From contig CAZBFO010000001.1 in the NCBI GenBank assembly GCA_964491475.1, positions 263,538 through 327,537 of the forward strand: DNA of 64,000 bases. The letters run 5' to 3'. This document shows positions 31,910 to 57,751 of this stretch, piece by piece. How positions within the stretch are numbered: the stretch's first letter is position 1; every line of letters begins with the position of its first letter. The notes under the pieces are model-generated. The model saw only the letters and a list, made by a program, of their open reading frames with translations. It ran no database searches and was not told the origin of the DNA. A program made the position numbers and the translations under genes. This stretch comes from an uncultured Gammaproteobacteria bacterium. Lineage in GTDB: Bacteria > Patescibacteriota > Patescibacteriia > SG8-24.

Positions 31910-32355
31910 CCCGCGCTCACGGATCGACAGATGAACGCGGATTCGCCCTGCTGGTAACGGTCATTCTCACGGCCGCGCTGCTGGCGAGCGCGGGCGTCGC
32001 CGCCAGCGTGGCGACCTCCCGCGCCTCGGCGCAATCGTCCCTGATGCTGTGGCGTTCGCAGGCGCGGTCGCTGGCCGACGGCTGCGCGGAGGCGGCCGCC
32101 GCACGACTGCTTGGCAACCCGGCATACGATGGCGGAGAGGAAGTGATCCTGCCGACGGGTTCCTGTCGCGTCACGTCCGTCAGGCATGACGACCCGTCGC
32201 CGGGTACGACCGCCGTTGAAGCCACGGGCAAAACGCACGGAGCATCCGCGTCGGTGACCGTCATCGGAGAATCTCGCGCGCGTTGCCTTTCTTCGTCCCC
32301 CGCCCCGTTCGGGATGAGATTGCGTTCTTGGATTGAAGTCCCCGCGCATGAGTGA
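31906..32355 (+). CDS. minor pseudopilin (GspK/ComGG-like, lacks E+5)
   Basis: MTRAHGSTDERGFALLVTVILTAALLA; ATGA overlap with the preceding gene. Confidence 0.65.
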   Translation: MTRAHGSTDERGFALLVTVILTAALLASAGVAASVATSRASAQSSLMLWRSQARSLADGCAEAAAARLLGNPAYDGGEEVILPTGSCRVTSVRHDDPSPGTTAVEATGKTHGASASVTVIGESRARCLSSSPAPFGMRLRSWIEVPAHE

Positions 32356-32457
32356 CTGCCTCGTCACCATCGCCGCCTTGCACCGTCGCGTCCGCGGCCC
32401 GCCGCCGTCCGCGCGAGTCGCATGCTTCGTCTCATTACTCATGCTCACCTTTTTCCC

Positions 32458-32970
32458 ATGCGCCACGTCCTCCGCCACCGCCGCCCATCTGCAAACAAGG
32501 GATTCACGCTGATCGAAATGCTGGTCGTAATGGGCATCATCGCCGCGCTGGCCGGCATGGTGATCACGGCGGTCAATCCCGCCAAGCAGTTCGCTCAAGC
32601 TCGCAATGCCGAGCGCCAGTCTGGCGTCACGGCGATTCTGAACGCCATCGGCCAGCGCATGGCCGACAACAAGGGCACTTTCGCCGGGACTTTCAGCGTC
32701 GGTGGCACCGGCTATACCTGCCCGACGCTGCCGAACAGCGCCGCCGCAATCGCGGCACAGGGCGGCGCGGACCTGTCGTGTCTCACGCCCACGTACCTGT
32801 CTTCGCAGATTCCCGTCGATCCGAACGGCGGAACCTGGACCGGACCTCTCGCCTACGCCAGCGGCTACACCGTCGCGGCCGACGCGCTCGGCCGAGTGAC
32901 GATCTGCGCGCCGAACGCCGCAACCGAGACCGCAGTACCAGGTGCGACACCGATCTGCCAAACGCGTTAG
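32458..32970 (+). CDS. type IV major pilin / pseudopilin (ComGC-like)
   Basis: Leader MRHVLRHRRPSANKG then FTLIEMLVVMGIIAALAGMV; Cys pair near C-terminus. Start could also be 32422. Confidence 0.75.
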   Translation: MRHVLRHRRPSANKGFTLIEMLVVMGIIAALAGMVITAVNPAKQFAQARNAERQSGVTAILNAIGQRMADNKGTFAGTFSVGGTGYTCPTLPNSAAAIAAQGGADLSCLTPTYLSSQIPVDPNGGTWTGPLAYASGYTVAADALGRVTICAPNAATETAVPGATPICQTR

Positions 32971-36002: not shown

Positions 36003-38564
36003 CTATTTGGCCTGCTGCGGGGCCGCCGGCATCGCCTTGAGCTGGGTGCGCTCCAGAATCTCCTGCTCCACGATGGCCCGGTCGCGACCGAATTTGAGTC
36101 GGGAGAGCTGCTTCAGCGCCTCGCCGATGCGCTTGTCGCCGCGGATGGGCATCGGCGCCTTGAAGTTGAACGGCCGGCTGGCTTGGCTGCTGATGAGCAG
36201 CTTGGAGTTCCAGCTGAACTTTTCCACGTTGGTGAGGTCGAGCGCCGAGAACACCGGCGCGAATTCCTTCTCGAGCACCTCGCCGTCCTCGATGCCGATG
36301 CGGCCGATGAGCATGTTGCCCACGTTGCCCAGCACGGCGTCACGGATTTCGGTGTCGCCCTTGGGCGCCAGCTGACCCATGTACTGGTGGGCGATGATCA
36401 GGCCCAGGCGGTACTTACGGGCTTCGGAAAGAATCGTGGCGATCGACGGCGTGATGAAGTTCTGGAACTCGTCGATGTACAGGAAGAAGTCCTTGCGATC
36501 CTTCTCCGGCATGTTGGCACGGCTCATTGCCGCCATCTGCAGCTTGGTGACGATGATCAGGCCGAGCAGGTTGGCATTGATGTCGCCGATCTTTCCCTTG
36601 GACAGGTTCACCAGGAAAATCTTGCGGTTGTCCATGACCTGACTGAAGTCAAAGGCCGACTTCTGCTGGCCGATGATGTTGCGCATCATGGCATTCTCCA
36701 CGAAGCGGCCCACCTTGGAGATGAGGTAGCCGAGCATTTCGGACTTGTGGAAGTCGGAAGTCTTGTCCATTTCGTTCTCCCAGAACGAGCGCACCACCGG
36801 GTCGGTGACCTTCTTGCGCCACTCCTTTTGGAAATCGGCATCGGAGACCAGGCGCGGAATCTCGGCGATGGTGCCGGGGTTGTCCTTGTCGCTCATCAGC
36901 GTGAGCATGTAGTTGCGCATCTGGTGCTCGAACATCGGGCCGATCATCTCGGCGCCGAACAGCTTGTAGAAGATGGCCACCATTTCGCCGCAGACGAAGT
37001 CCTTCATCTCGTCGCTGGGAGCCTCGATCATGTTCAGCGCCACGGGGCGATCCAAGTCGGACGGATCGAAGACGATGACGTCGTCGGCACGTTCCTTGGG
37101 GATGCAGCTCAAAACGTTTTCCACCAGATCGCCGTGCGGATCGATGACCGCCACGCCGTCGCCGCGCTTGATGTCCTGGACGATCAGGTTGGCGATGTAT
37201 TCCGACTTGCCGGAACCCGATTTGCCGATGATGTACATGTGACGCAGGCGGTCTTCGGTCTTGATGTACACCTGGGTCTTCTCGCCGCGGTACTCCACGA
37301 AGCCCAAATGCAGTCCGTCCTTGGGAAGGTTGGTCGGCGGCGGCGCCTTGCGCGAGGTCAGCCAGCGGATGTTCGGCGTTTCGGTGGACGACAGCGGGAA
37401 GTGGCACAGGCTGGCCATCTCCTCGCCGCTCATGATCATCCGTTTCTTCTCGTCGAAGTGGCGGAAGATGAAGTCCTTGATGATCTTGTTGCCGGCGGCG
37501 CCCTTGACGATCTGGTTGCCGTACTGCGGAATGCTGTACTGCGAGAAGGCGTTGATGATGTTGTTGAGGTAGTTGTTGGCGGCCATGGGGGTGGCGGCCG
37601 AAGCCACCACCCGGATGACCACGTCCAGGCCGTACTTGGCGGCCTTGTCGTCGATGGCCTTGACCATCTCCTCTTCGGCCGCGCTCATGCGGCGCATTTC
37701 CTTCTTGTCGTCCTTCTTGCTTGCGACCATCGCGCCTGCCGTGGACAGCAGACTCTTGCCGCTCATGGCCTCCTTGAGCGTCTTGCCTTCGTTCATGCCT
37801 TTCACCACGGACAGCGGCAGCGTCCGCCATTCCTTCTTGGCCGAGCGCACGATGATCTGGATGGCGGCACCGTCGGTCTTTTCGACTTTGGCCAGCGCGT
37901 TGGTAAGGCTGTTGAGCGGATCGGATTCCTGTTTCTTGTAGGTCTTGATGGGGAAGAAGTACTCGCGCTTGAAAATCATGCGTGCGCCCACCGCCGTACC
38001 CTGCGGCTTGAAGATGTCGTAGTCGGACACCGGCTCGATCTGCGCCAGCGGAAACTGACCATGTATTTGCTGCTCCACGAACTCCTTGAGGTGGTGCGGC
38101 GCGGCCACGTAGAACGACACCAGACCGTCCTTGGCGACCATCTCGAACGAGACATGGTCGGCACGACCGACCATCCAGGCCCTGAACCCGCGCTCGGCGG
38201 TCAGGCCGCCGATCGAGGCGTAGACGTTCTCCATGATGGCGATCTTCTCCTGGACCTGTTGCAAGGACTTTTCCTGCTGGCCGGATTCGCCCTTTTCGGA
38301 CTGTTCCTTGGGAACGGTCACCAGCATCACTTCCATCTTGAAGGCCACGTCGGACTGGTACTTGGCGCGCATGCGCGAACGCACGATCGCAAAGGCGATC
38401 CAGACGGCCAGAAGCGCGAACAGCGCCAGACCGACGAGGATGCCGGCGGGTCCGGTCGCGGACGACAACGCAGACGACGCATTGAGGTTTTTCACGAAGG
38501 CGAGTTGGAACAGCGCGAATGGCATGGGCGTCCGGTTAATCCTCGAAGACCCCGTCGGCGGCAC
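36003..38564 (-). CDS. membrane-anchored P-loop ATPase of the FtsK-HerA/VirB4 superfamily (TraC/VirB4- or TraG-like)
   Basis: N-terminal TM helix. Walker A IIGKSGSGKSEYIANLIV, Walker B FFLYIDEFQNF, arginine-finger-like ARKYRLGLIIAHQYMGQL (RKxxG...xQ pattern of HerA/VirB4). 853 aa. Confidence 0.6.
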   Translation of the reverse strand: MPPTGSSRINRTPMPFALFQLAFVKNLNASSALSSATGPAGILVGLALFALLAVWIAFAIVRSRMRAKYQSDVAFKMEVMLVTVPKEQSEKGESGQQEKSLQQVQEKIAIMENVYASIGGLTAERGFRAWMVGRADHVSFEMVAKDGLVSFYVAAPHHLKEFVEQQIHGQFPLAQIEPVSDYDIFKPQGTAVGARMIFKREYFFPIKTYKKQESDPLNSLTNALAKVEKTDGAAIQIIVRSAKKEWRTLPLSVVKGMNEGKTLKEAMSGKSLLSTAGAMVASKKDDKKEMRRMSAAEEEMVKAIDDKAAKYGLDVVIRVVASAATPMAANNYLNNIINAFSQYSIPQYGNQIVKGAAGNKIIKDFIFRHFDEKKRMIMSGEEMASLCHFPLSSTETPNIRWLTSRKAPPPTNLPKDGLHLGFVEYRGEKTQVYIKTEDRLRHMYIIGKSGSGKSEYIANLIVQDIKRGDGVAVIDPHGDLVENVLSCIPKERADDVIVFDPSDLDRPVALNMIEAPSDEMKDFVCGEMVAIFYKLFGAEMIGPMFEHQMRNYMLTLMSDKDNPGTIAEIPRLVSDADFQKEWRKKVTDPVVRSFWENEMDKTSDFHKSEMLGYLISKVGRFVENAMMRNIIGQQKSAFDFSQVMDNRKIFLVNLSKGKIGDINANLLGLIIVTKLQMAAMSRANMPEKDRKDFFLYIDEFQNFITPSIATILSEARKYRLGLIIAHQYMGQLAPKGDTEIRDAVLGNVGNMLIGRIGIEDGEVLEKEFAPVFSALDLTNVEKFSWNSKLLISSQASRPFNFKAPMPIRGDKRIGEALKQLSRLKFGRDRAIVEQEILERTQLKAMPAAPQQAK

Positions 38565-40195: not shown

Positions 40196-41626
40196 TCAGA
40201 TGCGCTTGATGCGACGCCCCTCGGGAGTATCTTCGACCAGGTAGCCGCGGCTCTTGAGCTCGTCGCGGACGGTGTCGGCCTCGGCGAAGCGCTTTTCGCG
40301 GCGGGCCTCGTCGCGCTTGTCGATCAGCGACAGGATGCTGGCTGGGATATCGGCCTCGTCGGTGCTGACGCCGAAGGAAAAGCCCAGCACATTGCCGACG
40401 TCGTCGAAGAAAGCGATGGCCGCCTGGCGCGCCTTCTTGGTCAGCTCGCCCTTGGCGATGCGGTCGTTGGTGACGCGCACGAACTCGAACACGGCAGCCA
40501 AGGCTTCGGCCACGTTCAGGTCGTCGTCGAGCGCTCCCGTGAACGCCTCGGTGGCCTTCTTGGCTTCGGCGTCTGCAGTTCCCCCTTCCTGCGGCGTGGA
40601 CTGCCTGACCGCGTCGACGGCGGCGTCGATGCGTGCCAACGCCGCGCGCGCGCCGTCCAAGCCGTGCAGGGTGAAGTTCAGTGAGCCGCGGTAGTGCGTG
40701 GACAACAGCTGGTAGCGGATGCTGCGCGGGTCGTATCCGCGAGCAACCAGGTCGTCGAGGGTATAGAAGTTTCCCTTGGACTTGGACATTTTGACGCCAT
40801 CGACCAGCAGATGGGTGGCGTGCAGCCAGTACTTCACGAAGGTCTTGCCGCTGGCGGCCTCGGACTGGGCGATCTCGCACTCGTGGTGCGGGAACTTGTT
40901 GTCCTCGCCGCCGGTGTGGATGTCGATGGTCTCGCCCAGGTACTTGGTGGCCATGGCCGAGCACTCGATGTGCCAGCCGGGATAGCCCTTGCCCCAGGGC
41001 GCTTCCCACTGCAGCAGGTGCTTGGGGTTGTAAATCCAGAGCGCGAAGTCGGCGGGGTGGCGCTTTTCGTCGCGCACCTCGATGCGAGCGCCGGCGTCGA
41101 GCGCGTCGAGCGTGTTGCCGGAGAGGGCGCCGTAGTCCTTGAAGGAAGTGACGTCAAAATAGACGCTCGTTCCCCCGTCCTTCTCCACCTTATAGGCGTG
41201 GCCGTTCTCCAGCAGCTTGGCGATGATGGCGATCATCTCGGGCACGTGGTCGCTGGCCTTGGGGTAGACGCTGGCCGGCTTCATGCCCATGCGGCCGATG
41301 TCGCGGAAGAAGGCGTCGGTGTAGAACTGCGCCACTTCTGCCGGCGTCTTGCCGGCTTTCTCGGCGGCCACTTCCATCTTGTCCTCGCCTTCGTCGGCGT
41401 CGGCCAGCATGTGCCCGACGTCGGTGATGTTCATCACCTGCGTCACTACGAAGCCGCGGTACTCCAAGTAGCGTCGCAGCAGGTCGGCCAGCAGGAACGA
41501 GCGCAGGTTGCCGATGTGGATGTAGTCGTAGACCGTGGGACCGCAGTTGTACATGGTCACACGCCCCTTTTTGAGGGGTTTGAACTCCAGGTCGGACTTG
41601 GTCAGCGAGTCGTGAAAACGCAGCAT
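40196..41626 (-). CDS. cysS: cysteinyl-tRNA synthetase
   Basis: HIGH-type motif [28 protein letters not shown], Zn-binding Cys. Start at the MLRFHD Met with GGAGG upstream. Confidence 0.9.
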
Positions 41627-41668
41627 AATGACAGATGTCCTCCACTCTACCCTCGCCAAGTCCCAGTA

Positions 41669-42322
41669 TCAAGGGGCTCGGAGGGCCTTTGGAGGCGAGT
41701 CGGACGGCTTCCCCGTCGTCATGAAAACGGGAACGCCGATGACGATGGCGCTTGCGGTGAACTGTTCCTTTTCCTTGATGTCCTCGCCGGACATGGCTTC
41801 GACGACGATTCCCGGACGAACGTCGGCAAGCGTCGCCTTCGTGTCGACATACGGCATGGGATGCGAACCGCGCCGACCCTTTGCGTCGTAGTCCTGCAGT
41901 TCCTTCATGAAAATTGAGGCATCCTTCTGCGTCCGCACCGCGAACGACGTCTTTGCGTCGACCATGACCGTCCTTTCCTCGGGTATCGACGAATATTCGC
42001 TCGGCCAAGATTCCACTTGCATGGCGAACGATGCGGCCCCGACGTTCATGACGTGTCCGGATACGGTGAGCAATGTCTTCGGCTCAAACGGGGAAGGTCC
42101 GCGGACGACCGGCGCAGCAGACGGTTCCCGTGCCGCATGCGGAGATGCCTCCTGGTGCGCCCGAAAGCTCCCGGTGTCCTTAGCATCCCCGACCGTCAAG
42201 GCGCGATCAGAGGGCGGTGCGCTGCGTCCGAAGGAGTAACCGATGAGCGTGCCTACGGCCATAGACGCGGCCACCAGTGCCAAAATCGAACCGGTCATGG
42301 ATTGTGGATGTCTTTCGCTCAT
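41669..42322 (-). CDS. membrane-anchored protein, member of a 4-copy paralog family (N-terminal TM, about 120-aa beta-rich possible OB-fold domain, Pro-rich tail)
   Basis: TM MSERHPQSMTGSILALVAASMAVGTLIG; core TLLTVSGHVMNVGAASFAMQV... similar to the cores of the 42412, 46759 and 50994 genes. Confidence 0.5.
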   Translation of the reverse strand: MSERHPQSMTGSILALVAASMAVGTLIGYSFGRSAPPSDRALTVGDAKDTGSFRAHQEASPHAAREPSAAPVVRGPSPFEPKTLLTVSGHVMNVGAASFAMQVESWPSEYSSIPEERTVMVDAKTSFAVRTQKDASIFMKELQDYDAKGRRGSHPMPYVDTKATLADVRPGIVVEAMSGEDIKEKEQFTASAIVIGVPVFMTTGKPSDSPPKALRAP

Positions 42323-42411
42323 GGAAATGCCTTACGTAGACGGCGGAGACCGTCGTCACATGCAGAAAATCGGACCCCGAGCGCGGAATCCGATTCCTGC
42401 CTTAGCAATCG

Positions 42412-43128
42412 TTAGCGCGGCGCCTGACCGCTTGGGACGACTACGGGCGGAATGGCCGCACCCGCAGACGGCGGGCCTACTGGCGCATCCGAAGGAGGCA
42501 GAGGGACCGTCGCTCGCTGCAAATCCGGAGGCGCGGCGTTCTTGTCCAAGGAAACGGTCGCGGCCGCGAACTTCGGCTGTGCCTTCACGTCGCCAGTGGT
42601 CTCAATCTGTACGTGCATGCCGACCTTCACGTCCCCGATGCTGCCAATTGCCGTTTCGAACTGGGAAGGAGGGGCTATGTCGGTAACCGGAGGCGTTGCG
42701 GAACCGGTCGGAGGCGCGAGCACAGGCTTCTTGAAAGCCTGCAGCTCCTTCGCTACTGCCGCAGGATCCCTGGGTGACCTGACGTTGATTTTCGTGTTGG
42801 CGTCGATGACGACCTCACGTGTCAATGGAACGTCAGTAACGAGAGGGTTCAGCACTTGGTCGTCGACAGTGACGGTAAAAGACGACTCCCCGACGTTCGT
42901 TACCGTACCCGTCAGATGGCGCAACTCCTTCGGTTCCGGAACCAGCACGCCCGACCGCTCAAGCTTGTCTTTAGCGGCGGCATATCCCTGACTGTAGCCA
43001 TCCGAAAGGAGTCCTTTTCCCGGCGCCGTCGAGGTCGTGCCGTACTTGCAGGCGGCGTAACCAATGACGAGACCGACGGTCAGCGCCACGGCGAAGATCG
43101 CCGGCACCAGACCAGACATTTTCTTCAT
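42412..43128 (-). CDS. membrane-anchored paralog-family protein (as 41669..42322) with long Pro-rich C-terminus
   Basis: MKKMSGLVPAIFAVALTVGLVIGYAA TM; core LTGTVTNVGESSFTVTVDDQ.... SD GGAGA 10 nt upstream of the chosen ATG; lies just downstream of giant gene 1. Confidence 0.5.
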   Translation of the reverse strand: MKKMSGLVPAIFAVALTVGLVIGYAACKYGTTSTAPGKGLLSDGYSQGYAAAKDKLERSGVLVPEPKELRHLTGTVTNVGESSFTVTVDDQVLNPLVTDVPLTREVVIDANTKINVRSPRDPAAVAKELQAFKKPVLAPPTGSATPPVTDIAPPSQFETAIGSIGDVKVGMHVQIETTGDVKAQPKFAAATVSLDKNAAPPDLQRATVPLPPSDAPVGPPSAGAAIPPVVVPSGQAPR

Positions 43129-43151
43129 GTTTGGCATGTCTCCCATAGGCG

Positions 43152-46100
43152 TCATAGCTGATTGCAATACACGTACTGTCCACCGCTCCATACCTGCGTC
43201 ACGAAGTAGCCGTTGGGGCAAGCGCAGGAATTGCCCGGTGCGCAGTACACCCAACCGTAACCGGCACCGTCACTGTTGCCCGAGGCAACCAGGTCGTAGT
43301 AGACGGTCGCGCCCCATGAGGTGATGCCGCCATAGGCATAAATGTTACCGCTCGCCGACATCCAACTGGAAGAGGAGAGCGTACTCACACTCGTGGCGCC
43401 GGCGCTAAGACTGCCGGAAATGGACGCGTTACCGCTGTTGTTGAGCGTGCCGGATCCAAGGAAGGAATACGGACCGCTTCCGTAGACGCCGGCGTAGGTT
43501 CCCGTGCCGTAGACGCCATACGAACCGCCATTGCCGTACACGCCGTAGGTGCCGCCAGAACCCTGACCGTAAACGCCCGTGGAAGTACCTGAACCGATGA
43601 CGCCGTAGAATCCGGAACCCTGCACGCCGTAAGTTTGGCCGGTTCCCGAAACGCCGATACCTCCCCCCGCATTGACGGTGCCCTGAACGCCGATCCAGCT
43701 GCTCGTACCGAACAAACCGTAATTTGAACCGCTGCCGTAGACGCCGTAGGTGCCGCCAGTGCCGTTGACGCCGTATGATCCGCCGTTGCCCGCGACGCCC
43801 GTGGTGGAACCGACGCCCGCGACGCCATAGGAACCGTTACCGTAGAGGCCGTAATTTCCTCCTTGTCCCCAGACGCCGTAGGTGTTACCGCTGCCATACA
43901 TGCCGGTGCCGATACCGGTGCCGTACACGCCAAAAGTGCCGTTACCGTACACGCCGTAGGTGCCGCCGTTGCCGTAGACGCCGTAGGTGCCGGAAGAGCT
44001 GAAGCTGCCACCGGTCGTAGAACCGCTTCCATAGACACCTTGTGTTCCGCCAGCGAACCAGCCGCCCCAATTAGGTCCGGTACCGTAGACGCCGATACCC
44101 GCACCGCCCGTCGAAGTACCGGAGACGCCGTAGCTGGGACCTTCGCCATAGACGCCATAGGCGCTGCCGTAACCGCGAACGCCCATGTTGCTGCTGGGAG
44201 AGACGCCCGCGCCGAGATTGGACTGGACGTAAGCGTCACCGAGCACCATCAGCTTTTGGCCCGATGCCGAGCCGCCGATGCCGACGGTCGTGCCGTTATC
44301 GACGATCTGCGAATTGCCTATGCTCGAGGCGGCAGTGAACTTCGGTACGTAGTTGGCGGTGCCGCTGCCCGTCACGCCTGCCACATTCGTGTCCGTAATC
44401 GTGACCGCGCCGGTCGAGCCGGAGAGGCTGATGCCCGAACCGGCCGTGAGCGACGTCACGCCCGTGTTCGAGAAGGTCACCGCGCCGGTAGCGCCGGACA
44501 CGCCGATGCCGGTGCCGGCCGTGGCGGAGGTGACGCCGGTGTTGGAAACGACGACCGCGCCCGTGGTGGGAGCGACGGAAATGCCAGATCCGGATCCGGA
44601 GACGGAAGTGACCGGCGCAGAGGCAGCTGTCGTCCAAGTGCCGTTGCCGGAAGCGTCAGAAGTGAGCACCTTGCCCGCGCCAGCGCCCGTGGCCATCAGG
44701 AAGCCGGTCATCTTGGCGGTGCCGTTGACGTCGAGTTTCTGCGTCGGGACGGCGACGCCGAGACCGAGGTTGCCGGACAAGTAGCTCTGGCCGCCGGCAG
44801 AATAGAGGGCGTACTTGTTGGTGCCGACGCCGATGGAGTCGATGTAGATGCCGTAGTTATTGGTGAGGGTTCCGGACGGCGTACCGCTCTGGTAAACGCG
44901 CAAGCCGTAGGCGTTGGTGACGTTGGCGGGGTTGCCGAAGTACAGGTTCGAGTACATGCCGTACAGGTTGGTGATGGTACCTGAACCGCCGTTCGAGGCG
45001 GCACCGTAAACGCCGGCCATGTCCGTCACCGCGCCGGAGCCGCTGCGGTACACTTCGCCGTTGACCGCGTAGGCGGACTGCGTCGTTCCGCTATGACCGA
45101 CGACCACGTTGGCCTCGATGCCGCTCAACCAGCTGGTGAAGTTGGTCGCTCCGGCAGAGCTGGTATCGACGTCGGCGTAAATGGCATCGAACCAGCTGGC
45201 CGGGCTGGCCGACGGAACCGGCTTGATGATGTTGGACATGCCCAGGCCGATGTTGCCGGTCAGGTTCTCCGAGATGTTCGTGACGTAATTGGTGCTGGTG
45301 CTCGCGGTCGCGCCGAAGGCCGAATGGCCGGCGACGGTCAGCTTGCCGCTGGTGGAAGTGTCGCCAGCCGAGGTGACCTTGAACTGCGAGGTGGGACCGA
45401 CGGAGAGCAGGGCGGTAGGCGCGGCATTGCCGATACCGACGTTGGTGCCGTCATCGAACACCAGCGAATTGCCGATGGCGCTGGCAGAGGTGAACTTGGC
45501 GTGGTAATTGGTGGTGCCGCTGCCCGTGATGCCGGACTGCGTGGTCCAGGTGCCGTTGCCGGAGGCATCGGAAACCAGCACCTTGCCCGCGCCCGCGCCG
45601 GTCGTCAGCTGCAAGCCGGTCATCTTGGCGGTGCCGTTGACATCAAGAAGAGTGCCCGGTGTCGAGGTGCCGATGCCGACGTAGCCGTTTTGATCGATCC
45701 TGACGCGCTCGGCGCGGGTCGTCGAGCCGTTGGGGGTGGTTTCAAGCGTGAGCAAGGTGCCATGCGCGGCATCGGTCTGATTTTCCGCAGCGCGGATGAT
45801 GAAGGCGCCGTTGCTCAATGACGAGAACCCCGTGGTGCCATAGGCCCGGCCGCTGAAGAACGCCAGGGCGTCACCGGACTGCGCGGCGGTAGGCGCGGCG
45901 GTGGTTCCACGCGCGCGGCGTCCCGTGAAGTTCGAGGCAACCGCCGAGCCGTAGGAGTCGACGTTCGCCGCCACGGGGTCGACGGTGCCGACGATGTTCA
46001 GGCTGCCGGTCGGCGTAGAAGTACCGATGCCCAAGCTGCCGTACAAGCCCATGTACATGCTGGTGCCGCCCGAACCCCAGTTGCCGACGTTCAGCGTGGT

Positions 46101-46607
46101 CACGCCGGAGCCGTCGACGCGGATGGCCTTGCCGCTGGAGAGGTAGGCGTCGCCGCCGCTCGACTTGAGGTCGCCAGTGACGCTGATGTAGCCGGTCTGC
46201 GCGGACGACGGGCTGATGAGGACGTAAGGGTTGTCGCAGGTGTCGGCGCAGACGTTCCAGGTGCTGCCGGTGGGGCAGGTGCGGTTAGTGACGCAAGAGC
46301 CGGAGCTGGAACATTGCGTCGTGCCTGACGGGCACACGCAGCTCAACGACGAGCAGTCATACACCTGCGTGGACGAAGTGCACGGACGAGAATCCGATTG
46401 GCACGAGGCGTCAGACGCCCGGTACAGCAGGCCGCCGAAGCAGGTGGTGCCGCCGCCCGAGGTGGGACAGGCGCAGGAGGCCTGCGTGGAGTTGTAGGGG
46501 CAGGTCTGGGCGGATGCGGCAACGGGCAGCAAGGTCGAACCAGCTGCGATGAGCAAAGAAGCAACGACACTAACGAAGACTGCGGCTCGAGAACGGGCCA
46601 TACGCAT
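43152..46607 (-). CDS. giant secreted fibre-like protein 1: Cys-rich N-domain, tail-fibre-like GIGTxxP...LDVNG modules, Gly/Tyr nonapeptide array, Cys-containing C-terminal cap
   Basis: 1151 aa. Signal peptide MRMARSRAAVFVSVVASLLIAAGSTLLPVAASA; about 16 Cys in residues 35-125. Repeated VGIGTSTPGTLLDVNGTAKMTG-type motifs and an about 200-aa run of xYGVYGxGx. C-terminus YCAPGNSCACPNGYFVTQVWSGGQYVYCNQL. Paralog of the 47405..49816 gene. Confidence 0.75.
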   Translation of the reverse strand: MRMARSRAAVFVSVVASLLIAAGSTLLPVAASAQTCPYNSTQASCACPTSGGGTTCFGGLLYRASDASCQSDSRPCTSSTQVYDCSSLSCVCPSGTTQCSSSGSCVTNRTCPTGSTWNVCADTCDNPYVLISPSSAQTGYISVTGDLKSSGGDAYLSSGKAIRVDGSGVTTLNVGNWGSGGTSMYMGLYGSLGIGTSTPTGSLNIVGTVDPVAANVDSYGSAVASNFTGRRARGTTAAPTAAQSGDALAFFSGRAYGTTGFSSLSNGAFIIRAAENQTDAAHGTLLTLETTPNGSTTRAERVRIDQNGYVGIGTSTPGTLLDVNGTAKMTGLQLTTGAGAGKVLVSDASGNGTWTTQSGITGSGTTNYHAKFTSASAIGNSLVFDDGTNVGIGNAAPTALLSVGPTSQFKVTSAGDTSTSGKLTVAGHSAFGATASTSTNYVTNISENLTGNIGLGMSNIIKPVPSASPASWFDAIYADVDTSSAGATNFTSWLSGIEANVVVGHSGTTQSAYAVNGEVYRSGSGAVTDMAGVYGAASNGGSGTITNLYGMYSNLYFGNPANVTNAYGLRVYQSGTPSGTLTNNYGIYIDSIGVGTNKYALYSAGGQSYLSGNLGLGVAVPTQKLDVNGTAKMTGFLMATGAGAGKVLTSDASGNGTWTTAASAPVTSVSGSGSGISVAPTTGAVVVSNTGVTSATAGTGIGVSGATGAVTFSNTGVTSLTAGSGISLSGSTGAVTITDTNVAGVTGSGTANYVPKFTAASSIGNSQIVDNGTTVGIGGSASGQKLMVLGDAYVQSNLGAGVSPSSNMGVRGYGSAYGVYGEGPSYGVSGTSTGGAGIGVYGTGPNWGGWFAGGTQGVYGSGSTTGGSFSSSGTYGVYGNGGTYGVYGNGTFGVYGTGIGTGMYGSGNTYGVWGQGGNYGLYGNGSYGVAGVGSTTGVAGNGGSYGVNGTGGTYGVYGSGSNYGLFGTSSWIGVQGTVNAGGGIGVSGTGQTYGVQGSGFYGVIGSGTSTGVYGQGSGGTYGVYGNGGSYGVYGTGTYAGVYGSGPYSFLGSGTLNNSGNASISGSLSAGATSVSTLSSSSWMSASGNIYAYGGITSWGATVYYDLVASGNSDGAGYGWVYCAPGNSCACPNGYFVTQVWSGGQYVYCNQL

Positions 46608-46630
46608 GCATGTATTAGTAAATCGCGTTC

Positions 46631-46639
46631 AGCATAGCA
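46631..46639 (-). promoter_or_regulatory. extended -10 box TGCTATGCT about 24 nt upstream of giant gene 1 ATG
   Basis: Read on the minus strand within an AT-rich divergent region 46608-46758. Confidence 0.4.
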
Positions 46640-46715
46640 CAAAAAAAGGTAAAAAGTTTAACTTATCCACAGATGAAGGCCGAAAACGGCACTGACTGCG
46701 CGTCCTCCACGGTTC

Positions 46716-46724
46716 TGCTATACT
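46716..46724 (+). promoter_or_regulatory. extended -10 box TGCTATACT about 35 nt upstream of the 46759 gene
   Basis: ggttcTGCTATACTcacggcg read directly. Confidence 0.4.
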
Positions 46725-46758
46725 CACGGCGTTTTCACCCCACCCTCATCAAATCGCC

Positions 46759-47364
46759 ATGCCGACCGGCCAGAACCAGTTTAGCGGCTCCCGATCGCCA
46801 GTGATCACCATGGTAACCATGACGGCCTTCGCTTTGGCGGTCGGTATCGGCATCGGTTTCTCTTGGGGCAAGCGTGCTGCAAAGCGAGTCGGCGCAGAAT
46901 CCCCTGCCGGCACGCAGCAAGCACGGGGTCCGTCCTCGCGGACACCGTTGCCGCCGTCGGTCATGGTCACGTTGGTCGGCACTGTCGAGACGGTTTCGTC
47001 CGATTCGTTCACGATGGAAGCGCAGCGTCCGCCGTTCCCGGGAACGTGGTTGGCAGAGCGCAAAGTGCGCGTCGACAAGTCCACCGCTTTCGTTCGCATG
47101 CAGCCAAAAGACGCCGAACAGTCAGCCAAGGACGCGGAAGCATACGTCACGGCGCAAAACCGGCACCCCGCATCTGGGAGCAAGCGGCCCACCCCGTACA
47201 CGGAGACGCCCGCAAAGTTCAGCGAGATACGGACCGGAACGCTCGTGGTGGTGTACGCCTCTCCCGAAGTGCACCTCGAGGACGCCGCGGAGTTCACCGC
47301 CACGCGCATCGAAACCGGCCCTCCGCCCACGACGCCTACGAACCCGCCGAAACCGAAAGGATGA
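46759..47364 (+). CDS. membrane-anchored paralog-family protein (as 41669..42322)
   Basis: TM ITMVTMTAFALAVGIGIGFSW; core TLVGTVETVSSDSFTMEA...; Pro/Thr-rich tail; convergent with giant gene 2. Confidence 0.5.
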   Translation: MPTGQNQFSGSRSPVITMVTMTAFALAVGIGIGFSWGKRAAKRVGAESPAGTQQARGPSSRTPLPPSVMVTLVGTVETVSSDSFTMEAQRPPFPGTWLAERKVRVDKSTAFVRMQPKDAEQSAKDAEAYVTAQNRHPASGSKRPTPYTETPAKFSEIRTGTLVVVYASPEVHLEDAAEFTATRIETGPPPTTPTNPPKPKG

Positions 47365-47404
47365 AAAAGCCGCCTCGTCGGGCGGCTTTTCCGTACCTCG
47401 CCCG

Positions 47405-49816
47405 TTACAGGCGCGAGCAATAGATCCAGGTGTTCGTTCCCCAGGACGCCCAGTACGGGTTCGACCCGTACACGCCGACCATGAACATGCCGTTCGGGCA
47501 GACGCAGTAGGAGCTGGTGCACTGGTAGTACTGGTTGGTTCCCCAGGAATTTCCTTCGGCCGCCAGGTCGTAGAAGATGTTCGCGCCCCAGGAAGTCAGG
47601 CCGTTGTAGGCGGTGATGGCGTTGCCGGAAATGTTGCCGTTGATCGACATGTTGCCGTTGTTGGTGATGATGCCGCTGCCGCTGAACGCGTACCAGTTGG
47701 TGCCGATCGAGGCGCTGGTCGGGTTGGAACAGCCGGTGCAGTAAAAGTAGCCGCCCGTCGAACCGACGCCCTGTACGCCGATGCTGTTGCCGTTGCCGTA
47801 CACGCCGACGCTGCTGCCGCTTCCGTAGACGCCGGTCGGACCGTTGCCGTTCACGCCATAGGTGGTGCCGTTGCCCTGGACGCCGTACGAGCCTCCCGCG
47901 CCGATGACGCCGTAATTGGAACCGTAGGAGTAGATGCCGGTCGGACCGCCGTAGCTGCGGATGCCGTAGCTGCTACCGGTAGTGTAGACGCCGTCAGTGC
48001 CGCCGGTGGTGTAGACGCCGTCGGTGGAGCCCTGGGCGTAGACGCCGTACGTGGAACCGTCGCCACGCAGGCCGATCTGGCCGGTGCCATAGCCGCCATA
48101 CAGGGTACCGACCGCGTTGATGCCCGTGTAGCCGTGGGTGTCGATGCCGGTATTGGGCGAAGTCACGTAGACGCCGGTGCCTGAACCAGTGGCGGAGAAG
48201 TAGCCGCCGTAGGTCGCGCCCGTCGCCGCCAAGCCGGTGCTCGAAAGCGACGAGAAGCTGCCGCCGTAGCTCGACTGGCTGTATCCCGTGACGCCGAAGC
48301 CGGAGTTCGAAGTGCCGTACACGCCCGAAGTGGCGTTGGCGCTGCCGCCGTATACGCCGTAGGTGGTGCCGTTACCGTACACGCCGTACGAACCCGCCGC
48401 GTACACGCCAAAGGAAGGGTTGGGCGTCATGCCGCCGAAGCCGGCAGTGCCGGTCGCGCGCAGGTTACCGGTGACATCCAGCGGATAAGCCGGGGCCGCG
48501 TTGGCCACGCCGACGTACGAGCCGTTGTCGTAGATGAGCGAGTTGCCGATCGACGTGGAAGCGGTGAACTTCGGCACGTAGTTGGTGGTGCCGCTGCCGC
48601 TGATGCCAGCCGGAACCGTATTGGAAATGGTCACCGAGCCCGTCGAGCCCGACAGGCTGATGCCCGAGCCGGCGGCGAGCGAGGTCACGCCGGTGTTCGA
48701 GAAGGTCACCGCACCGGTGCCGCTCGATACGCCGATGCCGGTACCGGCCGCAGCAGAAGTCACGCCGGTATTGGAGACGACGACAGCGCCAGTGGTCGGG
48801 CTCACCGAAATGCCCGCGCCAGAACCGGAGACCGAGGTGACCGGGGCGCTGTAAGTGGCCCACGTGCCGTTGCCGGAAGCGTCAGAAGTGAGCAACTTTC
48901 CGGCGCCAGCGCCCGTGGCCATCAGGAAGCCGGTCATCTTGGCAGTGCCGTTGACGTCGAGCTTCTGGGCCGGCGTGGTGGTGCCGACGCCGAGGTTGCC
49001 GCTACCCTGCATCAACGACAGCAGCGTCAGGCCATTGATGTTGTCGCGGAAGTACAGGTCATTGGTGCTGCTGTTGCGCAGGCCGACGCTCCATTGGGTC
49101 GTTCCGGCGGTGTCGAAGGAGAGCGAAGCAAAATCGGTGGCAGGTGCCTCGCGACGAATGGTCAAGGATGTGGTGCCGCCGTTAGCGATCTTCACGTTGC
49201 CCTGCACGTCCAGCTTGGCAGAAGGTGTCGAGGTGCCCAGACCCAGGTTGCCGTACACGCCCATGTTGAGACCGGTCGCACCGGACCCCCAATTGCCCAC
49301 GTTCAGCGTGGTCACGCCGGAGCCGTCGACGCGGATGGCCTTGCCGCTGGAAAGGTAGGCGTCGCCGCCGCTCGACTTGAGGTCGCCGGTCACGTTGATG
49401 AAGCCGGTCTGCACCGAGGACGGGCTGATCAGCACATAGGGATTGTCGCAAGTGTCGGTGCAGACGTTCCAGGTGCTTCCTGCCGGGCAGGTGCGATTGG
49501 TGACGCAAGCCCCCGAGCTGGAACAGAGCGTGGTGCCAGAAGGGCAGACGCAGCTCAAAGTGGAGCAGTCATACACCTGGGCGGAAGAGCCGCAGGGGCG
49601 CGAGTCCGCGCGGCAGGACGAATCCGAAGCGCGGTACAGCAGGCCGCCGAAACAGGTGGTGCCGCCGCCCGAGGTGGGGCAGGCGCAGGAGGCCTGCGTG
49701 GAGTTGTAAGGGCAGGTCTGGGCGGATGCCATCCCGGCAATCGTCAACGAAGAAAAGACGAAGGCTACCGTGGCCGCGAACTTGCCGAACCGTAACCGCT
49801 GCTGCCGCATGCTCAT
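47405..49816 (-). CDS. giant secreted fibre-like protein 2 (paralog of 43152..46607)
   Basis: 803 aa. N-terminal 180 aa about 90 percent identical to giant 1, shared internal segment (KLDVNGTAKMTGFLMATGAGAGK...NYVPKFTA), divergent Gly/Tyr repeat array, C-terminal YCVCPNGMF...WIYCSRL. Confidence 0.75.
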   Translation of the reverse strand: MSMRQQRLRFGKFAATVAFVFSSLTIAGMASAQTCPYNSTQASCACPTSGGGTTCFGGLLYRASDSSCRADSRPCGSSAQVYDCSTLSCVCPSGTTLCSSSGACVTNRTCPAGSTWNVCTDTCDNPYVLISPSSVQTGFINVTGDLKSSGGDAYLSSGKAIRVDGSGVTTLNVGNWGSGATGLNMGVYGNLGLGTSTPSAKLDVQGNVKIANGGTTSLTIRREAPATDFASLSFDTAGTTQWSVGLRNSSTNDLYFRDNINGLTLLSLMQGSGNLGVGTTTPAQKLDVNGTAKMTGFLMATGAGAGKLLTSDASGNGTWATYSAPVTSVSGSGAGISVSPTTGAVVVSNTGVTSAAAGTGIGVSSGTGAVTFSNTGVTSLAAGSGISLSGSTGSVTISNTVPAGISGSGTTNYVPKFTASTSIGNSLIYDNGSYVGVANAAPAYPLDVTGNLRATGTAGFGGMTPNPSFGVYAAGSYGVYGNGTTYGVYGGSANATSGVYGTSNSGFGVTGYSQSSYGGSFSSLSSTGLAATGATYGGYFSATGSGTGVYVTSPNTGIDTHGYTGINAVGTLYGGYGTGQIGLRGDGSTYGVYAQGSTDGVYTTGGTDGVYTTGSSYGIRSYGGPTGIYSYGSNYGVIGAGGSYGVQGNGTTYGVNGNGPTGVYGSGSSVGVYGNGNSIGVQGVGSTGGYFYCTGCSNPTSASIGTNWYAFSGSGIITNNGNMSINGNISGNAITAYNGLTSWGANIFYDLAAEGNSWGTNQYYQCTSSYCVCPNGMFMVGVYGSNPYWASWGTNTWIYCSRL

Positions 49817-49839
49817 ACTCTTGAGGGGGAAAGTTGCCG

Positions 49840-50850
49840 CTACTTGCAGCAGGCGTACTTAAGTCCGACCGGAATGTTGCATCCCGTGAGCGTGCCGCGT
49901 CCACCGGAGGTGTTGTCGAATGCCCAGACGCTGCCGAACACCGACGCGCTGGTGCTGGTCCAACCGAGACAGTCGCTGGCGTTGAAGGCCGAAGCGCCCG
50001 GCGGACCGTTGTCGATCCAAGCGAAGTTGCCGCCGTTGCTGCGCACCGGATCGCTGGATGTCGAGCACTGGATGCTCTCAAGCATCTCTTCGGAGCGGCA
50101 GACGTGCGAACCGGCGTACTGCGTGGAGCACTTGTCGTCGGCGGAATAGTATCCCGTCTGACCGACGTTGGTGTGGCCCGTGGGCACCGCGGCCAAATTG
50201 GGCGTGTAGGCAGAAGTCGTCAGGCCGACGAACACCTTGCCGAAGCAGCCCGAGGTGCTGATGCTGCCGGTGTAAGTGAGGTTGCCGTTGGGGTCGACGC
50301 GGAACTTGGTGACGCCGTTGTTCTGCAGGAGCAGCAGCGAAGTGTTGGCGGTGCCGCTCTGGATGTTGCCGTAGAGGAGGTTCTGCGTGCCGGTCAGCGG
50401 CAGCGTCGACTTGCCGAAAGTGTTCATGCCGGCAGCCGAAACGCCGCCGTCGATGTCGATCGAGGCGTTCGTCTGCGTGCCCGAAGAACTGACGCGGTTC
50501 CAAATGATGGCCGGGATGTTTCCGCCCGGCGGCAAGGCCGTCGGCGGCGTGTAGGTGGCAGCACTGACAGTATGGATCACGAACCCGCCAATCGAGATGA
50601 TTGCCATGGCGAAACCGAAGAACGCGGCGATGAGCCGGAACGGCGAAGCGTTGGCGCGTACCGACACGGGCAAGGCAGCGGGCACCGGCGCGGACGCAAA
50701 AATCTCGGCAGGCTCGGTGACCGGTACCGACCGCCGAACCGCACGTCTGGCGCGGATCGGTTTCCGCGTGGTTCCCCCGCTTTTCTTGGCGGAAATTTTC
50801 CGCTCACACTTGGGAGCACCCTTTGGCAAAGCTTTGCGTTTTGCCGCCAT
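49840..50850 (-). CDS. type-II membrane protein with basic cytoplasmic N-terminus and Cys-containing extracellular domain, 24 nt upstream of giant gene 2
   Basis: MAAKRKALPKGAPKCERKISAKKSGG... then TM FRLIAAFFGFAMAIISIGGFVIHTV; extracellular Thr/Ser/Gly-rich domain ending CNIPVGLKYACCK. Start at the second Met of the track ORF. Confidence 0.55.
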   Translation of the reverse strand: MAAKRKALPKGAPKCERKISAKKSGGTTRKPIRARRAVRRSVPVTEPAEIFASAPVPAALPVSVRANASPFRLIAAFFGFAMAIISIGGFVIHTVSAATYTPPTALPPGGNIPAIIWNRVSSSGTQTNASIDIDGGVSAAGMNTFGKSTLPLTGTQNLLYGNIQSGTANTSLLLLQNNGVTKFRVDPNGNLTYTGSISTSGCFGKVFVGLTTSAYTPNLAAVPTGHTNVGQTGYYSADDKCSTQYAGSHVCRSEEMLESIQCSTSSDPVRSNGGNFAWIDNGPPGASAFNASDCLGWTSTSASVFGSVWAFDNTSGGRGTLTGCNIPVGLKYACCK

Positions 50851-50993
50851 AAGATAAGGAAAAATCACCGCTACTATACCATAAGGCGGCCCCCTCACCC
50901 AGCATCGGCGTTATCCACAATGCACCGACGTGCAGCGCTTCCCGAAAAACGCTATAGTCATTGCAGCTTTTCCTATTACTAAAAGACAGCACT

Positions 50994-52034
50994 ATGCCTC
51001 CAAGCCCAATGATGTCGCGCCAGTCGACATCTTCGATGAGCTCATCATCGGCAAAGATGCCCTCGCGCGGCATGCCCGGCGCCGGTCCGGTACTCGCCCT
51101 GCTCCTTGCGGGCGCCACATTCATCGGCGGCTACTACCTCGGCTCTCTGGCCGGACAGAAAGCCGGCTATCGGCAAGGCAGCGAAGAAACGAAGGCCGAC
51201 CTCAAGTCAAAAATCGCGGCGTCAGGTGCGTTCCCCACCCAGACGGAAATTCACGCGCTTTCCGGCAAAGTGACTGCCGTCCGGCCTGACGGTTTCGACC
51301 TCGACGTTTCCGCAGCGCAAAAGAACCCGCTAGAAGACTCCGGCCCGGCCAAGCGCTCCATTTCCGTGACCGAAAAGACCAAGATTTCCCTGCTCAAGCA
51401 ACGTGACTTCGCCGAATTCGAAGCCGCGCAGAAGGAATACCTGGCCACGCTCCAGAAAACGTCAGGCAAGACTGATCAGAAGCCGACAGAGCCTCCGCAA
51501 CCGTTCATGTTGGAACCGCTCAAATTGAGCGACATCAAGGTGGGAATGACCGTAGCGGTTTCCTCCGAAGCGAACATCGCCAAGGCGGCCACCATCCAGC
51601 CGACCGAGGTGACCGTCCAACCTGCACCGCCGCAACCGGCGCAAATTCCCGGCGCTCCGGCTCCCGGCACGGTGCCGCCGCCCGGCGCACCGACTCCGCC
51701 GCCCGGCGCCCCGGCCCCCGGCCCCGGCCCGGCACCGACAATCAAGTACAAGAAAAAGCCCCGGCTCACTGCCGGGGTTTTTGCTTGCATGCCAAGGTCA
51801 CCTCAACGCTTGCCCGCGAACTCTTCGCTCTTCACGAACGCCAGCGCCAGGATCGGCGCCACGATCCAGAAGAACCGCCCGTTGTCCGAGGCGAACACCT
51901 GCCGAGTCATCGGCGCCAAGTGCGAGACCGTTTCGGACGGAAGAAATGACAGGATGATGCTCACCAAAAGTCCGACATGGAAGGTGGAGAACAGAATCAC
52001 CTGCCACCACTTGGCCCCCGCGATGCCGCCGTAG
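50994..52034 (+). CDS. membrane-anchored paralog-family protein; 3' end uncertain (assembled ORF runs through a terminator hairpin and into the convergent gene)
   Basis: TATAGT box at about 50953. MPPSPMMSRQ... TM PVLALLLAGATFIGGYYLG; core LSGKVTAVRPDGFDLDVS...; Pro-rich PGAPAPGTVPPPGAPTPPPGAPAPGPGPAP. After about 51760 the GC3 bias of this frame collapses while the minus-strand frame is strongly coding. Confidence 0.4.
   Translation: MPPSPMMSRQSTSSMSSSSAKMPSRGMPGAGPVLALLLAGATFIGGYYLGSLAGQKAGYRQGSEETKADLKSKIAASGAFPTQTEIHALSGKVTAVRPDGFDLDVSAAQKNPLEDSGPAKRSISVTEKTKISLLKQRDFAEFEAAQKEYLATLQKTSGKTDQKPTEPPQPFMLEPLKLSDIKVGMTVAVSSEANIAKAATIQPTEVTVQPAPPQPAQIPGAPAPGTVPPPGAPTPPPGAPAPGPGPAPTIKYKKKPRLTAGVFACMPRSPQRLPANSSLFTNASARIGATIQKNRPLSEANTCRVIGAKCETVSDGRNDRMMLTKSPTWKVENRITCHHLAPAMPP
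51752..51783. terminator. bidirectional rho-independent terminator
   Basis: gccccggc-tcact-gccgggg hairpin flanked by AAAAA and TTTTT; downstream of the minus-strand gene ending at 51803. Confidence 0.55.
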
Positions 52035-55179: not shown

Positions 55180-55830
55180 CTACTTCTTTAACACATCCAG
55201 CAAACCTTTTCTAAACTCTACTGCCCCGCCATTTGCGGGATGACGTACGAGGACGCACTCCTCCACACCGCAGCTCTTCAGATTCCGCTGAGCAACGCGA
55301 CCGACCGCGACAATCTCCTTAATGTCGAATATGTCGACTAGCTCGCGTAGGAATTTCTGACCCACAGCAACTTCTTCTTCGCTCGGTGTCCGATTGGAAC
55401 GATCTGCTCCTTTCTTGTGAGGATGAAAAGGATACGACGGCCACATTAGAGGAAGTTGCTTAGCGTCTTCAAGCACATTCCAGACAATAGTAGCGGACGC
55501 TTCGCTCTTTATATCTTCCCATTCTTTTGTAGTTCCGTATCCTTTCTTTTCGCCGAACATCAGCCAGCGCCTTACTCCATTCAAAATCTGACGCCGACCA
55601 GTAAACGGGACTCCAGTTAATCTTGCCCCCTTGTATCCAGGTGCCTCACTCAAGAGAAGAACTTTGGGATTGAAGGCACGCATGTCCACGAGGTAGCGTT
55701 GCAGATTCTGACGTCTCACCTCGTTATTCTTGTCATCAAACGAATATTGATTCTTCGTCGTCAATGAGTCGACGGGCTCCTTTGCCAATTCAACAATGAA
55801 TTTTTCTACGCGCTTTTCAAAGGAGCCCAT
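55180..55830 (-). CDS. uracil-DNA glycosylase superfamily protein (family-4-like motif A variant SEAPG)
   Basis: LLLSEAPGYKGARLTGVPFTG matches motif A GEAPG...G.PF.G; motif-B-like VRHPANG. Start at the MGSFEK Met with GGAGAAGAAG upstream. Confidence 0.6.
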   Translation of the reverse strand: MGSFEKRVEKFIVELAKEPVDSLTTKNQYSFDDKNNEVRRQNLQRYLVDMRAFNPKVLLLSEAPGYKGARLTGVPFTGRRQILNGVRRWLMFGEKKGYGTTKEWEDIKSEASATIVWNVLEDAKQLPLMWPSYPFHPHKKGADRSNRTPSEEEVAVGQKFLRELVDIFDIKEIVAVGRVAQRNLKSCGVEECVLVRHPANGGAVEFRKGLLDVLKK

Positions 55831-55834
55831 AGCA

Positions 55835-57751
<1,917 letters not shown>

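Follow-up and report, generated by a model that had tools for sequence, protein, structure and literature searches.

Two large genes lie in tandem on the reverse strand of a 64,000-nucleotide stretch of contig CAZBFO010000001.1 (hereafter the window), and the DNA that they share raises the question of whether the pair forms a working antigen-switching system or is the product of an older history. An initial annotation, made from the sequence of the window, described the shared segments as near-identical, as the signature of recent duplication or gene conversion, and as those of a possible pair of variable surface antigens. The reading favoured here, which is held to be probable, is that the two genes, g1 (43152-46607) and g2 (47405-49816), encode tandem modular fibre-adhesins related through their stalk to a superfamily known as mosaic adhesive trimers (MAT), and that they are old paralogues of which a few tracts were later converted and the rest was reshuffled within a hypervariable chromosomal slot.

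A comparison of g1 and g2 by blastn returned exactly two long blocks. The first (46012-46517 in g1, 49224-49729 in g2; reverse strand, as are all features of the two genes given below) spans the cysteine-rich N-terminal domain plus the beginning of the stalk over 506 nt without gaps at 84.6% identity (E = 5e-163), and the second, the cassette (44280-44775 in g1, 48509-49001 in g2), covers 496 nt at 80.2% identity (E = 3e-128) and contains repeat families D5, D6 and D9. The cassette consists of one canonical fibre repeat unit (KLDVNGTAKMTG...GNGTW / GSGTxNYVPKFT...IGNS) and an insert of three 25-aa repeats, with a 75-nt period at 44403-44561. Beyond both blocks only short matches of 70-75% identity were found, between Gly-Tyr repeats, and the mosaic pattern of the two genes is real and far beyond chance. 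The comparison recovered the internal segment proposed in the initial annotation (44309-44747 in g1, 48526-48967 in g2), and the antisense shadow open reading frames (ORFs), put there at about 85% identity, were measured at 83.9% in DNA. The term near-identical, however, overstates a likeness in which block 1 has 78 mismatches and the longest perfect runs reach 53 nt in block 1 and 41 nt in the cassette. The claim that the first ~540 nt of the genes are nearly alike holds for residues ~33-200, which are 88-91% identical, but not for the signal peptides in the first ~32 codons, which exhibit 37% amino-acid identity; conservation begins at the mature N-terminus, QTCPYNSTQ...

Most of this likeness is probably maintained by selection on the protein. 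Among the mismatches of block 1, 56/78 fall at third codon positions, and Nei-Gojobori estimates over whole blocks give a synonymous divergence (dS) of 0.61 and a nonsynonymous divergence (dN) of 0.06 for block 1, and 0.60 and 0.10 for the cassette, with dN/dS ratios of 0.10 and 0.22 within the blocks against 0.5-0.75 elsewhere. Identity at four-fold degenerate sites is 0.59-0.62, compared with 0.42-0.46 expected from composition. These values argue against taking DNA-level identity as a sign of recent exchange. In sliding windows the background of the blocks is 75-80% identical with a dS of 1.2-1.4, which is saturated, and comparison with the orthologous gene of another genome gives a dS of 1.0-1.5, just as saturated, which removes the ground for calling the duplication or conversion recent. 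The locus recurs in at least seven related contigs, L001-L007, along which gene order was followed as far as each contig extends, and both shared modules are equally conserved in the L001 and L002 proteins (24-27 of 30 residues). Because the modules are as conserved in other genomes as they are here, purifying selection is likely to explain most of the block conservation, and high conservation does not by itself indicate exchange between g1 and g2. A single duplication after speciation with a dS of 0.6 was considered and dropped, since the sliding windows show a saturated background mixed with low-dS patches.

These patches comprise four short tracts of 63-102 nt that are 87-96% identical, with a dS of 0.15-0.41, and are candidates for gene conversion. 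Tract N-A (46425-46508 in g1, 49637-49720 in g2) is 84 nt long and 96.4% identical, with a dS of 0.15 against 1.4 in the adjoining background and third positions identical at 25/28 codons against 38/73 in the background. At 15 variable sites of this tract g1 and g2 agree and the L001 orthologue differs, compared with 3 and 0 sites for the other patterns, and 13 of these agreements lie at third positions. Tract N-B (46107-46205 in g1, 49319-49417 in g2; 99 nt, 92.9%, dS 0.18) contains the 53-nt run, and tract C-A (44649-44750 in g1, 48875-48976 in g2; 102 nt, 90%, dS 0.26; site patterns 18:4:4) contains the 41-nt run, while tract C-B (44451-44513 in g1, 48680-48742 in g2) is 63 nt long and 87% identical, with a dS of 0.41 and site patterns of 15:2:3. 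Both perfect runs exceed their permutation means of 27 and 22 nt (p about 0.005 each), in permutations that keep codon position and are independent of the chosen tract boundaries. A Sawyer-type test on variable sites is significant for the N-terminal block (p = 0.001-0.006; third positions only, p = 0.007) and for the cassette (p = 0.008), and the g1-L001 and g2-L001 controls are non-significant. Four-taxon informative sites favour the grouping of g1 with g2 (22:9:5 in the N-terminal block, 18:4:3 in the cassette), which fits duplication in the window lineage and homogenisation alike. Taken together, the case for old paralogues with a few old, short gene-conversion tracts is moderate and not conclusive.

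The gene products give an indication of what is being diversified. Both genes are intact ORFs, of 1151 aa (g1) and 803 aa (g2), whose coding frames are confirmed by the G+C content at third codon positions in frame (0.80 and 0.86, respectively); the database proteins P0003 and P0001, both from one NCBI contig, are identical to g1 and g2. From the ORFs and their translations, g1 is predicted to be a secreted modular fibre protein and g2 a paralogue of like overall architecture. Each translation reads as a Sec-type signal peptide ending in ASA before the QT of the mature protein, followed by a cysteine-rich domain of ~150 aa, stalk units recognised by the motifs GIGTxxPxxKLDVxG...GNGTW and GSGTxNYVPKFT...IGNS, Gly-Tyr arrays, and a small cysteine-containing C-terminal tip of the pattern CxCPNG...YCxxL. 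The Gly-Tyr array of g1 (43479-44199), detected as repeat family D1 and also by Tandem Repeats Finder, has a period of 27 nt, or 9 aa (YGVYGxGxx), and that of g2 (47768-48401) has the same 27-nt period. The tip of g1 (43155-43385) ends in ...CACPNGYFVTQVWSGGQYVYCNQL, a type also present in L005a and P0008, and exhibits ~48% identity with the tip of g2 (47408-47644; ...CVCPNGMFMVGVYG...WIYCSRL). A first, uninterrupted fibre repeat unit in g1 (45418-45687; LLDVNGTAKMTG...NYHAKFT...; repeat families D6 and D9) matches both ends of the cassette at 72-75% DNA identity by blastn. In line with the variable surface antigens suggested in the initial annotation, the genes are tandem paralogues for variable proteins that are secreted and probably surface-exposed.

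Neither protein matches Pfam at E up to 1 or NCBIfam, and the Pfam search found no Peptidase_S74 domain in g1 or g2, which assigns both to the non-S74 type. The stalk module at residues 223-334 of g1 (45606-45941), which g2 lacks, is homologous to the beta-helix subdomain of Bd1334 (phmmer against the PDB: 8OML_A, Bd1334, E = 3.1e-14; 8ON4_A, E = 3.9e-12) and is 44% identical to a tail-fibre-domain protein of Pseudobdellovibrio. The other stalk units of g2 are common to g1. Two parts of g1, residues ~200-300 (Bd1334-like) and ~400-600, are present in no syntenic relative. Homologue searches returned many proteins named "tail fiber domain-containing" or Peptidase_S74, some labelled Pseudobdellovibrio or Parcubacteria. 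Given the homology to trimeric MAT and tail-fibre stalks, together with the S74 and YadA modules in slot orthologues, g1 and g2 are predicted to form trimeric fibres.

The N-terminal domain sets the family apart. Its profile has 50 invariant columns, including 14 cysteines, across 15 proteins, and found 160 proteins among 1.84 billion representatives; a metagenome scan with the profile returned only five loci, short or redundant. Compared with the Pseudobdellovibrio tail-fibre-domain protein, which served as a stand-in for a full-length MAT protein of Bdellovibrio bacteriovorus HD100 and so makes the N-terminal comparison indirect, the cysteine-rich profile gave an hhalign probability of 0.2%, although the stalks align at E = 3e-30. 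Foldseek with the model of this domain returned no significant match, and only weak ones to EGF/LDLR-like cysteine-rich domains.

Across the related contigs, the genes occupy a single slot whose content varies. The order grpE-dnaK-dnaJ-...-lectin-like gene-[fibre gene(s)]-cysS-corA-T4CP (the coupling-protein gene of a type IV secretion system, T4SS) is kept in L001-L007, with the slot always bounded on the left by the gene for a 264-aa lectin-like protein and on the right by cysS. It contains two fibre genes in the window, L003 and L005, and one in L001, L002, L004, L006 and L007. Between the window and L002 the flanking proteins are 85-92% identical, compared with about 41% overall for the fibres. 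The pattern of a conserved N-terminal domain and a variable tip holds across the slot genes of all seven contigs: those of L002, L006 and L007 have Peptidase_S74 tips, L003b and L005b have YadA-head repeats and a ...CARVN end, L001 and L004 end in ...CFKY[KR], and g1, g2, L003a and L005a share the CxCPxG...YC end. An ORF at L006:7793-8356 opens with a signal peptide, runs into the beginning of the cysteine-rich domain (...AVGAQTCPYNSTKST) and then goes on as a small membrane protein of the dnB type (59% identical to L003_dnB); it resembles a scar left by the deletion of a second fibre gene and would thus record a loss of genes from the slot.

In the closest relative, L001, whose dnaJ is 86% identical to that of the window in protein and 83% in DNA, the slot carries a single gene of 856-871 aa that is a mosaic of g1 and g2. 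In the residue numbers of P0002, its N-terminal domain is equally close to g1 and g2, residues 166-270 have a counterpart in g2 only, residues 271-345 are of the g1 type, the cassette is again equally close to both, residues 481-585 have a counterpart in g1 only, residues 601-660 in g2 only and residues 736-765 in g1 only, and the tip differs in type from both g1 and g2 tips. All of these modules differ from their window counterparts at the level expected of orthologues (dS 0.7-1.3). Either one gene gave rise to two with complementary loss of modules, or two genes were fused by recombination; under either history, modules were lost, gained or swapped at recurring junction motifs. The exchange of sequence suggested in the initial annotation is therefore upheld as shuffling over evolutionary time, as indicated by the four low-dS tracts, the clustering of agreeing sites and the L001 mosaic.

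From these findings a history of the locus may be proposed. The cysteine-rich N-terminal domain would hold the fibre on the surface of its own producer, and purifying selection would keep the two most constrained modules, namely this domain and the stalk unit with the three 25-aa repeats. The paralogues would be old, with a synonymous background as saturated as between species, and short tracts would have been homogenised later by gene conversion. The remaining parts, including extra stalk modules, Gly-Tyr arrays and the C-terminal tip, would have been reshuffled by insertion, deletion and module swapping at the junction motifs GIGTxxPxxKLDVxG and GSGTxNYVPKFT, the diversity arising through recombination, both illegitimate and homologous, at these motifs and at repeats, with occasional short-tract conversion between the tandem copies. 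The outcome would be two fibres that share a base and differ in their distal parts, which are presumed to bind external targets, and the locus is likely to serve in recognising other cells or surfaces or in attaching to them. On this reading the adhesin locus diversifies through the shuffling of modules and not through programmed antigenic variation, with no sign of programmed or fast change, and the DNA shared by g1 and g2 would be mainly the footprint of protein constraint on old paralogues, with gene conversion both modest and old.

Working antigenic or phase variation would instead require frequent recombination of g1 and g2 through both blocks, with different cells displaying different chimeric fibres. 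Conserved ends and an internal shared cassette do flank divergent regions, the clustering statistics support past short-tract conversion, and in one relative the only slot gene combines g1 and g2 modules; yet identity of 80-85% and perfect tracts of at most 53 and 41 nt speak against that account, even the best tracts have a dS of 0.15-0.41, so that the last exchanges must be old, and the orthologue-level divergence of the L001 modules dates that event to the separation of lineages and not to change inside one population. Neither gene is truncated, both have signal peptides of their own, and tblastn of both proteins against the window found these two genes only, with no silent, promoterless or partial donor cassettes. 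Repeats in the 41-52 kb region are coding repeats only, no inverted repeats of at least 25 nt occur in 41000-52000, and the scanned ORFs of the window yielded no recombinase (site-specific or other), no integrase or transposase and no reverse transcriptase. The same searches led to the rejection of three specific devices: silent-cassette antigenic variation (two complete genes, youngest tract at dS 0.15), an invertible promoter or shufflon (no such inverted repeats, no recombinase) and a diversity-generating retroelement (no reverse transcriptase domain in the scanned ORFs, no repeats other than coding ones). Antigenic variation as a mechanism at work, which the initial annotation had suggested, is therefore regarded as improbable. 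A still less probable source, and one given very little weight, is that g1 and g2 are tail fibres of a phage, prophage or contractile injection system whose mosaicism reflects the shuffling of tail fibres in mobile elements. The locus lies amid housekeeping genes in an order kept across seven related contigs, the window is free of genes for capsid, portal, sheath, baseplate and integrase, both proteins begin with Sec signal peptides, and a PHROGs search returned only a short motif match to families of unknown function. In favour of such an origin, the stalk repeats, like the Peptidase_S74 ends seen in relatives, are typical of phage tail fibres and tailspikes, and some homologues are labelled "tail fiber domain-containing".

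The closest competitor, unlikely but deserving more weight than either of these, holds that no recombination took place, and that an old duplicate under purifying selection acquired low-dS patches because codons or the mRNA were locally constrained. Across the family no modules are more conserved than the two blocks, their dN/dS is 0.1-0.2, and four-fold identity is only modestly above the expectation from composition. Constraint on nucleotides is nevertheless made unlikely by the patches in which g1 and g2 agree where L001 differs, including the 13 third positions of tract N-A, and the N-terminal clustering stays significant when third positions alone are considered. Several points count against old paralogues with later conversion and reshuffling, and the first three bear on the conversion tracts: the Sawyer-type test of the cassette on third positions only is non-significant (p = 0.34), the tracts were delimited post hoc, which inflates the Fisher tests performed on them, and heterogeneous codon-level constraint may be the source of the low-dS patches. 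Both histories of the window and L001 fit the evidence of this one close relative. At the protein level, g2 has only a weak match in the PDB (8OND, Bd2133, E = 0.24), the AlphaFold2 (AF2) monomer model of the N-terminal domain is just moderately confident, with a predicted local distance difference test (pLDDT) score of 74 overall and 80-89 at residues 10-95, and trimerisation, surface display and binding are predictions. The assignment of the host clade, finally, depends on labels of related contigs that partly conflict.

Concerning those labels, several of the seven contigs are labelled Patescibacteria or Parcubacteria, and two metagenome-assembled genomes (MAGs) have conflicting labels. L003 and L005, both from DATJFD01, are labelled Candidatus Binatia, in conflict with the Patescibacteria or Parcubacteria labels of L006, L007 and several homologues, and L004 is labelled Gammaproteobacteria. 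The two DATJFD01 contigs carry the same dnaJ-to-cysS region with differing sequences within one MAG, a bin that must then be a mixture of two strains or species. The clade that bears the slot is probably Patescibacteria. Run SRR12313479 holds an identical dnaJ contig, and a Logan contig of the same genome, L013, ends before the fibre genes.

Two kinds of gene flank the fibres. Upstream of g2, the 264-aa membrane-anchored or secreted protein (49840-50634, reverse strand) probably has a C-type-lectin-like C-terminal domain; its gene is separated from the start of g2 by 23 nt, and the two are probably co-transcribed. Synteny and homologues identify it as the conserved left neighbour of the slot in all relatives. 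The AF2 model of its C-terminal domain has a pLDDT of 70-88, and its top ~24 Foldseek hits are all C-type lectin-like, although weak (best E = 0.022). The same domain also ends some full-length family members (P0006, P0028 and P0029). The 264-aa protein may itself be a short lectin-tipped surface protein.

On the other side, non-S74 fibre genes (window 41669-51698; L001-L007) are each followed on the same strand by a gene for a single-pass membrane protein of ~190-250 aa, and these proteins group by tip type: those after CFKY[KR] tips are 49% identical (L001_dn and L004_dn), those after CARVN tips 50% (L003_dnB and L005_dnB) and those after CxCPNG tips 38% (window 42412-43128 and L005_dnA). 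The S74-tipped genes of L002 and L007 are without such a gene before cysS. Directly downstream of g1, the small single-pass membrane protein at 42412-43128 (reverse strand; start codon uncertain, 43119-43146) is 38-39% identical to L005_dnA and to L003 8553-9083, each of which follows a like tip type. A further paralogue lies between the fibre locus and cysS (41669-42322, reverse strand). The exception is g2, whose neighbour, a small single-pass membrane protein between g1 and g2 that is a distant paralogue of the other small membrane proteins (25-29%), is on the opposite strand (46759-47364, forward). By analogy with tail-fibre assembly proteins, the grouping suggests that the small downstream protein is a tip-specific partner of the fibre.

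A more far-reaching and distinctly tentative proposal is that the dnaJ-cysS slot is the host-recognition locus of an episymbiotic clade of Patescibacteria. In this proposal, MAT-like trimeric fibres would be held on the cell by a disulfide-rich N-terminal domain of a kind not described before, non-S74 tips would each have a small membrane partner of their own for assembly or anchoring, and the swapping of modules, along with short-tract conversion from one tandem copy to the other, would diversify the host range, a process of which g1 and g2 would be a snapshot. The recognition of partners by ultrasmall, host-dependent bacteria is largely unexplained. The papers considered here on attachment in Patescibacteria name type IV pili as the adhesion factor, and in one of them PrgB-like adhesins were not detected in its Patescibacteria dataset (PMC12102498). 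If the proteins are surface fibres, the locus would be a compact, syntenic and easily found marker of the diversification of host recognition, and the logic of a conserved base and a swappable tip, as in phage tail fibres and Bdellovibrio MAT proteins, would be used with a different base domain in another lineage.

The remainder of the window is ordinary chromosome, with secDF, purA, ndk, a cytochrome oxidase operon, type IV pilus genes, dnaX, an orphan T4SS coupling protein, corA, cysS and the fibre locus, followed by dnaJ, dnaK, grpE, hrcA and yidC; Rfam found only a tRNA. The type IV pilus genes (27560-32970, forward), which lie 10-15 kb from the fibre locus, encode a PilB-like ATPase, a PilC-like platform protein, a 492-aa unknown protein and two small proteins, the second of which has a pilin-type N-terminal methylation motif. 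The orphan VirD4-like coupling protein (36003-38564, reverse) adjoins corA, and orphan T4CP genes have been reported to be common in Patescibacteria (PMC12102498). Between dnaK and a DUF3467 gene, the window carries a gene of the uracil-DNA-glycosylase family (55180-55835, reverse), also seen on the same-genome contig (L013:462-1112). An unrelated DUF4145 gene occupies this position in L001 (467-1105), so that genes have been replaced at another, smaller site close to the fibre slot. At 18012-22708 (forward) lies a haem-copper oxidase cluster that is complete, with COX1, COX3, a subunit II-like protein bearing a COX_ARM motif and a haem O synthase of the UbiA family. Patescibacteria are generally considered to be without respiratory chains, and the cluster is notable if the genome is truly that of a patescibacterium. 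A 718-aa SecD/SecDF-like protein (2268-4424, reverse) has a PPIC-type peptidyl-prolyl isomerase (Rotamase) domain inserted in its periplasmic/P1 region, and is an unusual fusion of a foldase and a translocon accessory subunit. The product of 16100-17389 (reverse), 429 aa long and with two fibronectin type III domains, has an unusual G+C content by codon position (GC2, at second positions, 0.59) and may be another secreted or surface protein.

Several known systems offer points of comparison. In Neisseria pilE/pilS, Borrelia vlsE and Mycoplasma genitalium MgPar, one expression site is accompanied by many silent, promoterless cassettes, and gene-conversion systems of antigenic variation exhibit long near-identical tracts and measurable switching rates. 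The locus resembles them in that conserved segments flank variable ones in genes for predicted surface proteins and that short-tract, non-reciprocal exchange between paralogous copies is proposed, but differs in having two complete genes at 80-85% identity, youngest tracts at a dS of 0.15 and no silent copies within the 64 kb. The trimeric autotransporter adhesins of the YadA family are likewise modular, repetitive fibres, and YadA_head is present in L003b, L005b and several homologues, whereas g1 and g2 have neither a YadA_head match nor a C-terminal membrane-anchor beta-barrel, and end in small cysteine-containing domains.

Phage tail fibres attach to their carrier through a conserved N-terminal part and vary in their distal parts. 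S74 tail fibres and tailspikes exchange modules at conserved junction motifs, as is seen here, and Peptidase_S74 forms the end of three slot orthologues (L002, L006 and L007); the chromosomal housekeeping context and the Sec signal peptides set g1 and g2 apart from them. The small protein that follows non-S74 genes co-varies with tip type in the manner of a tail-fibre assembly protein, although the downstream proteins here are membrane-anchored and, with no Pfam or PHROGs match, unrelated to known Tfa families.

The closest parallel is with the MAT superfamily of Bdellovibrio bacteriovorus, to which Bd1334 belongs and which is described as comprising S74 and non-S74 subfamilies of trimeric fibres exposed on the surface, their N-terminal end conserved and their tips open to swapping (Caulton et al. 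2024, PMC10769870). The present family differs in its N-terminal domain, which is family-specific, has 14 invariant cysteines and was not detected in the Pseudobdellovibrio stand-in; in its genomic arrangement, with one conserved chromosomal slot of 1-2 copies compared with ~21 dispersed paralogues; and in its host lineage, which is probably patescibacterial and not a predator. MAT fibres, moreover, are trimeric and surface-exposed, whereas g1 and g2 are known from sequence. The two groups are nevertheless alike in being long (~800-1150 aa here), secreted, fibre-like proteins with one end conserved among paralogues (N-terminal 88-91% between g1 and g2) and the other diversified (tips ~48%). 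They also share a tail-fibre-like stalk, with homology to the Bd1334 beta-helix at residues 223-334 of g1 and the weak match of g2 to Bd2133, and a swapping of tips that places S74 and non-S74 endings within one slot family.

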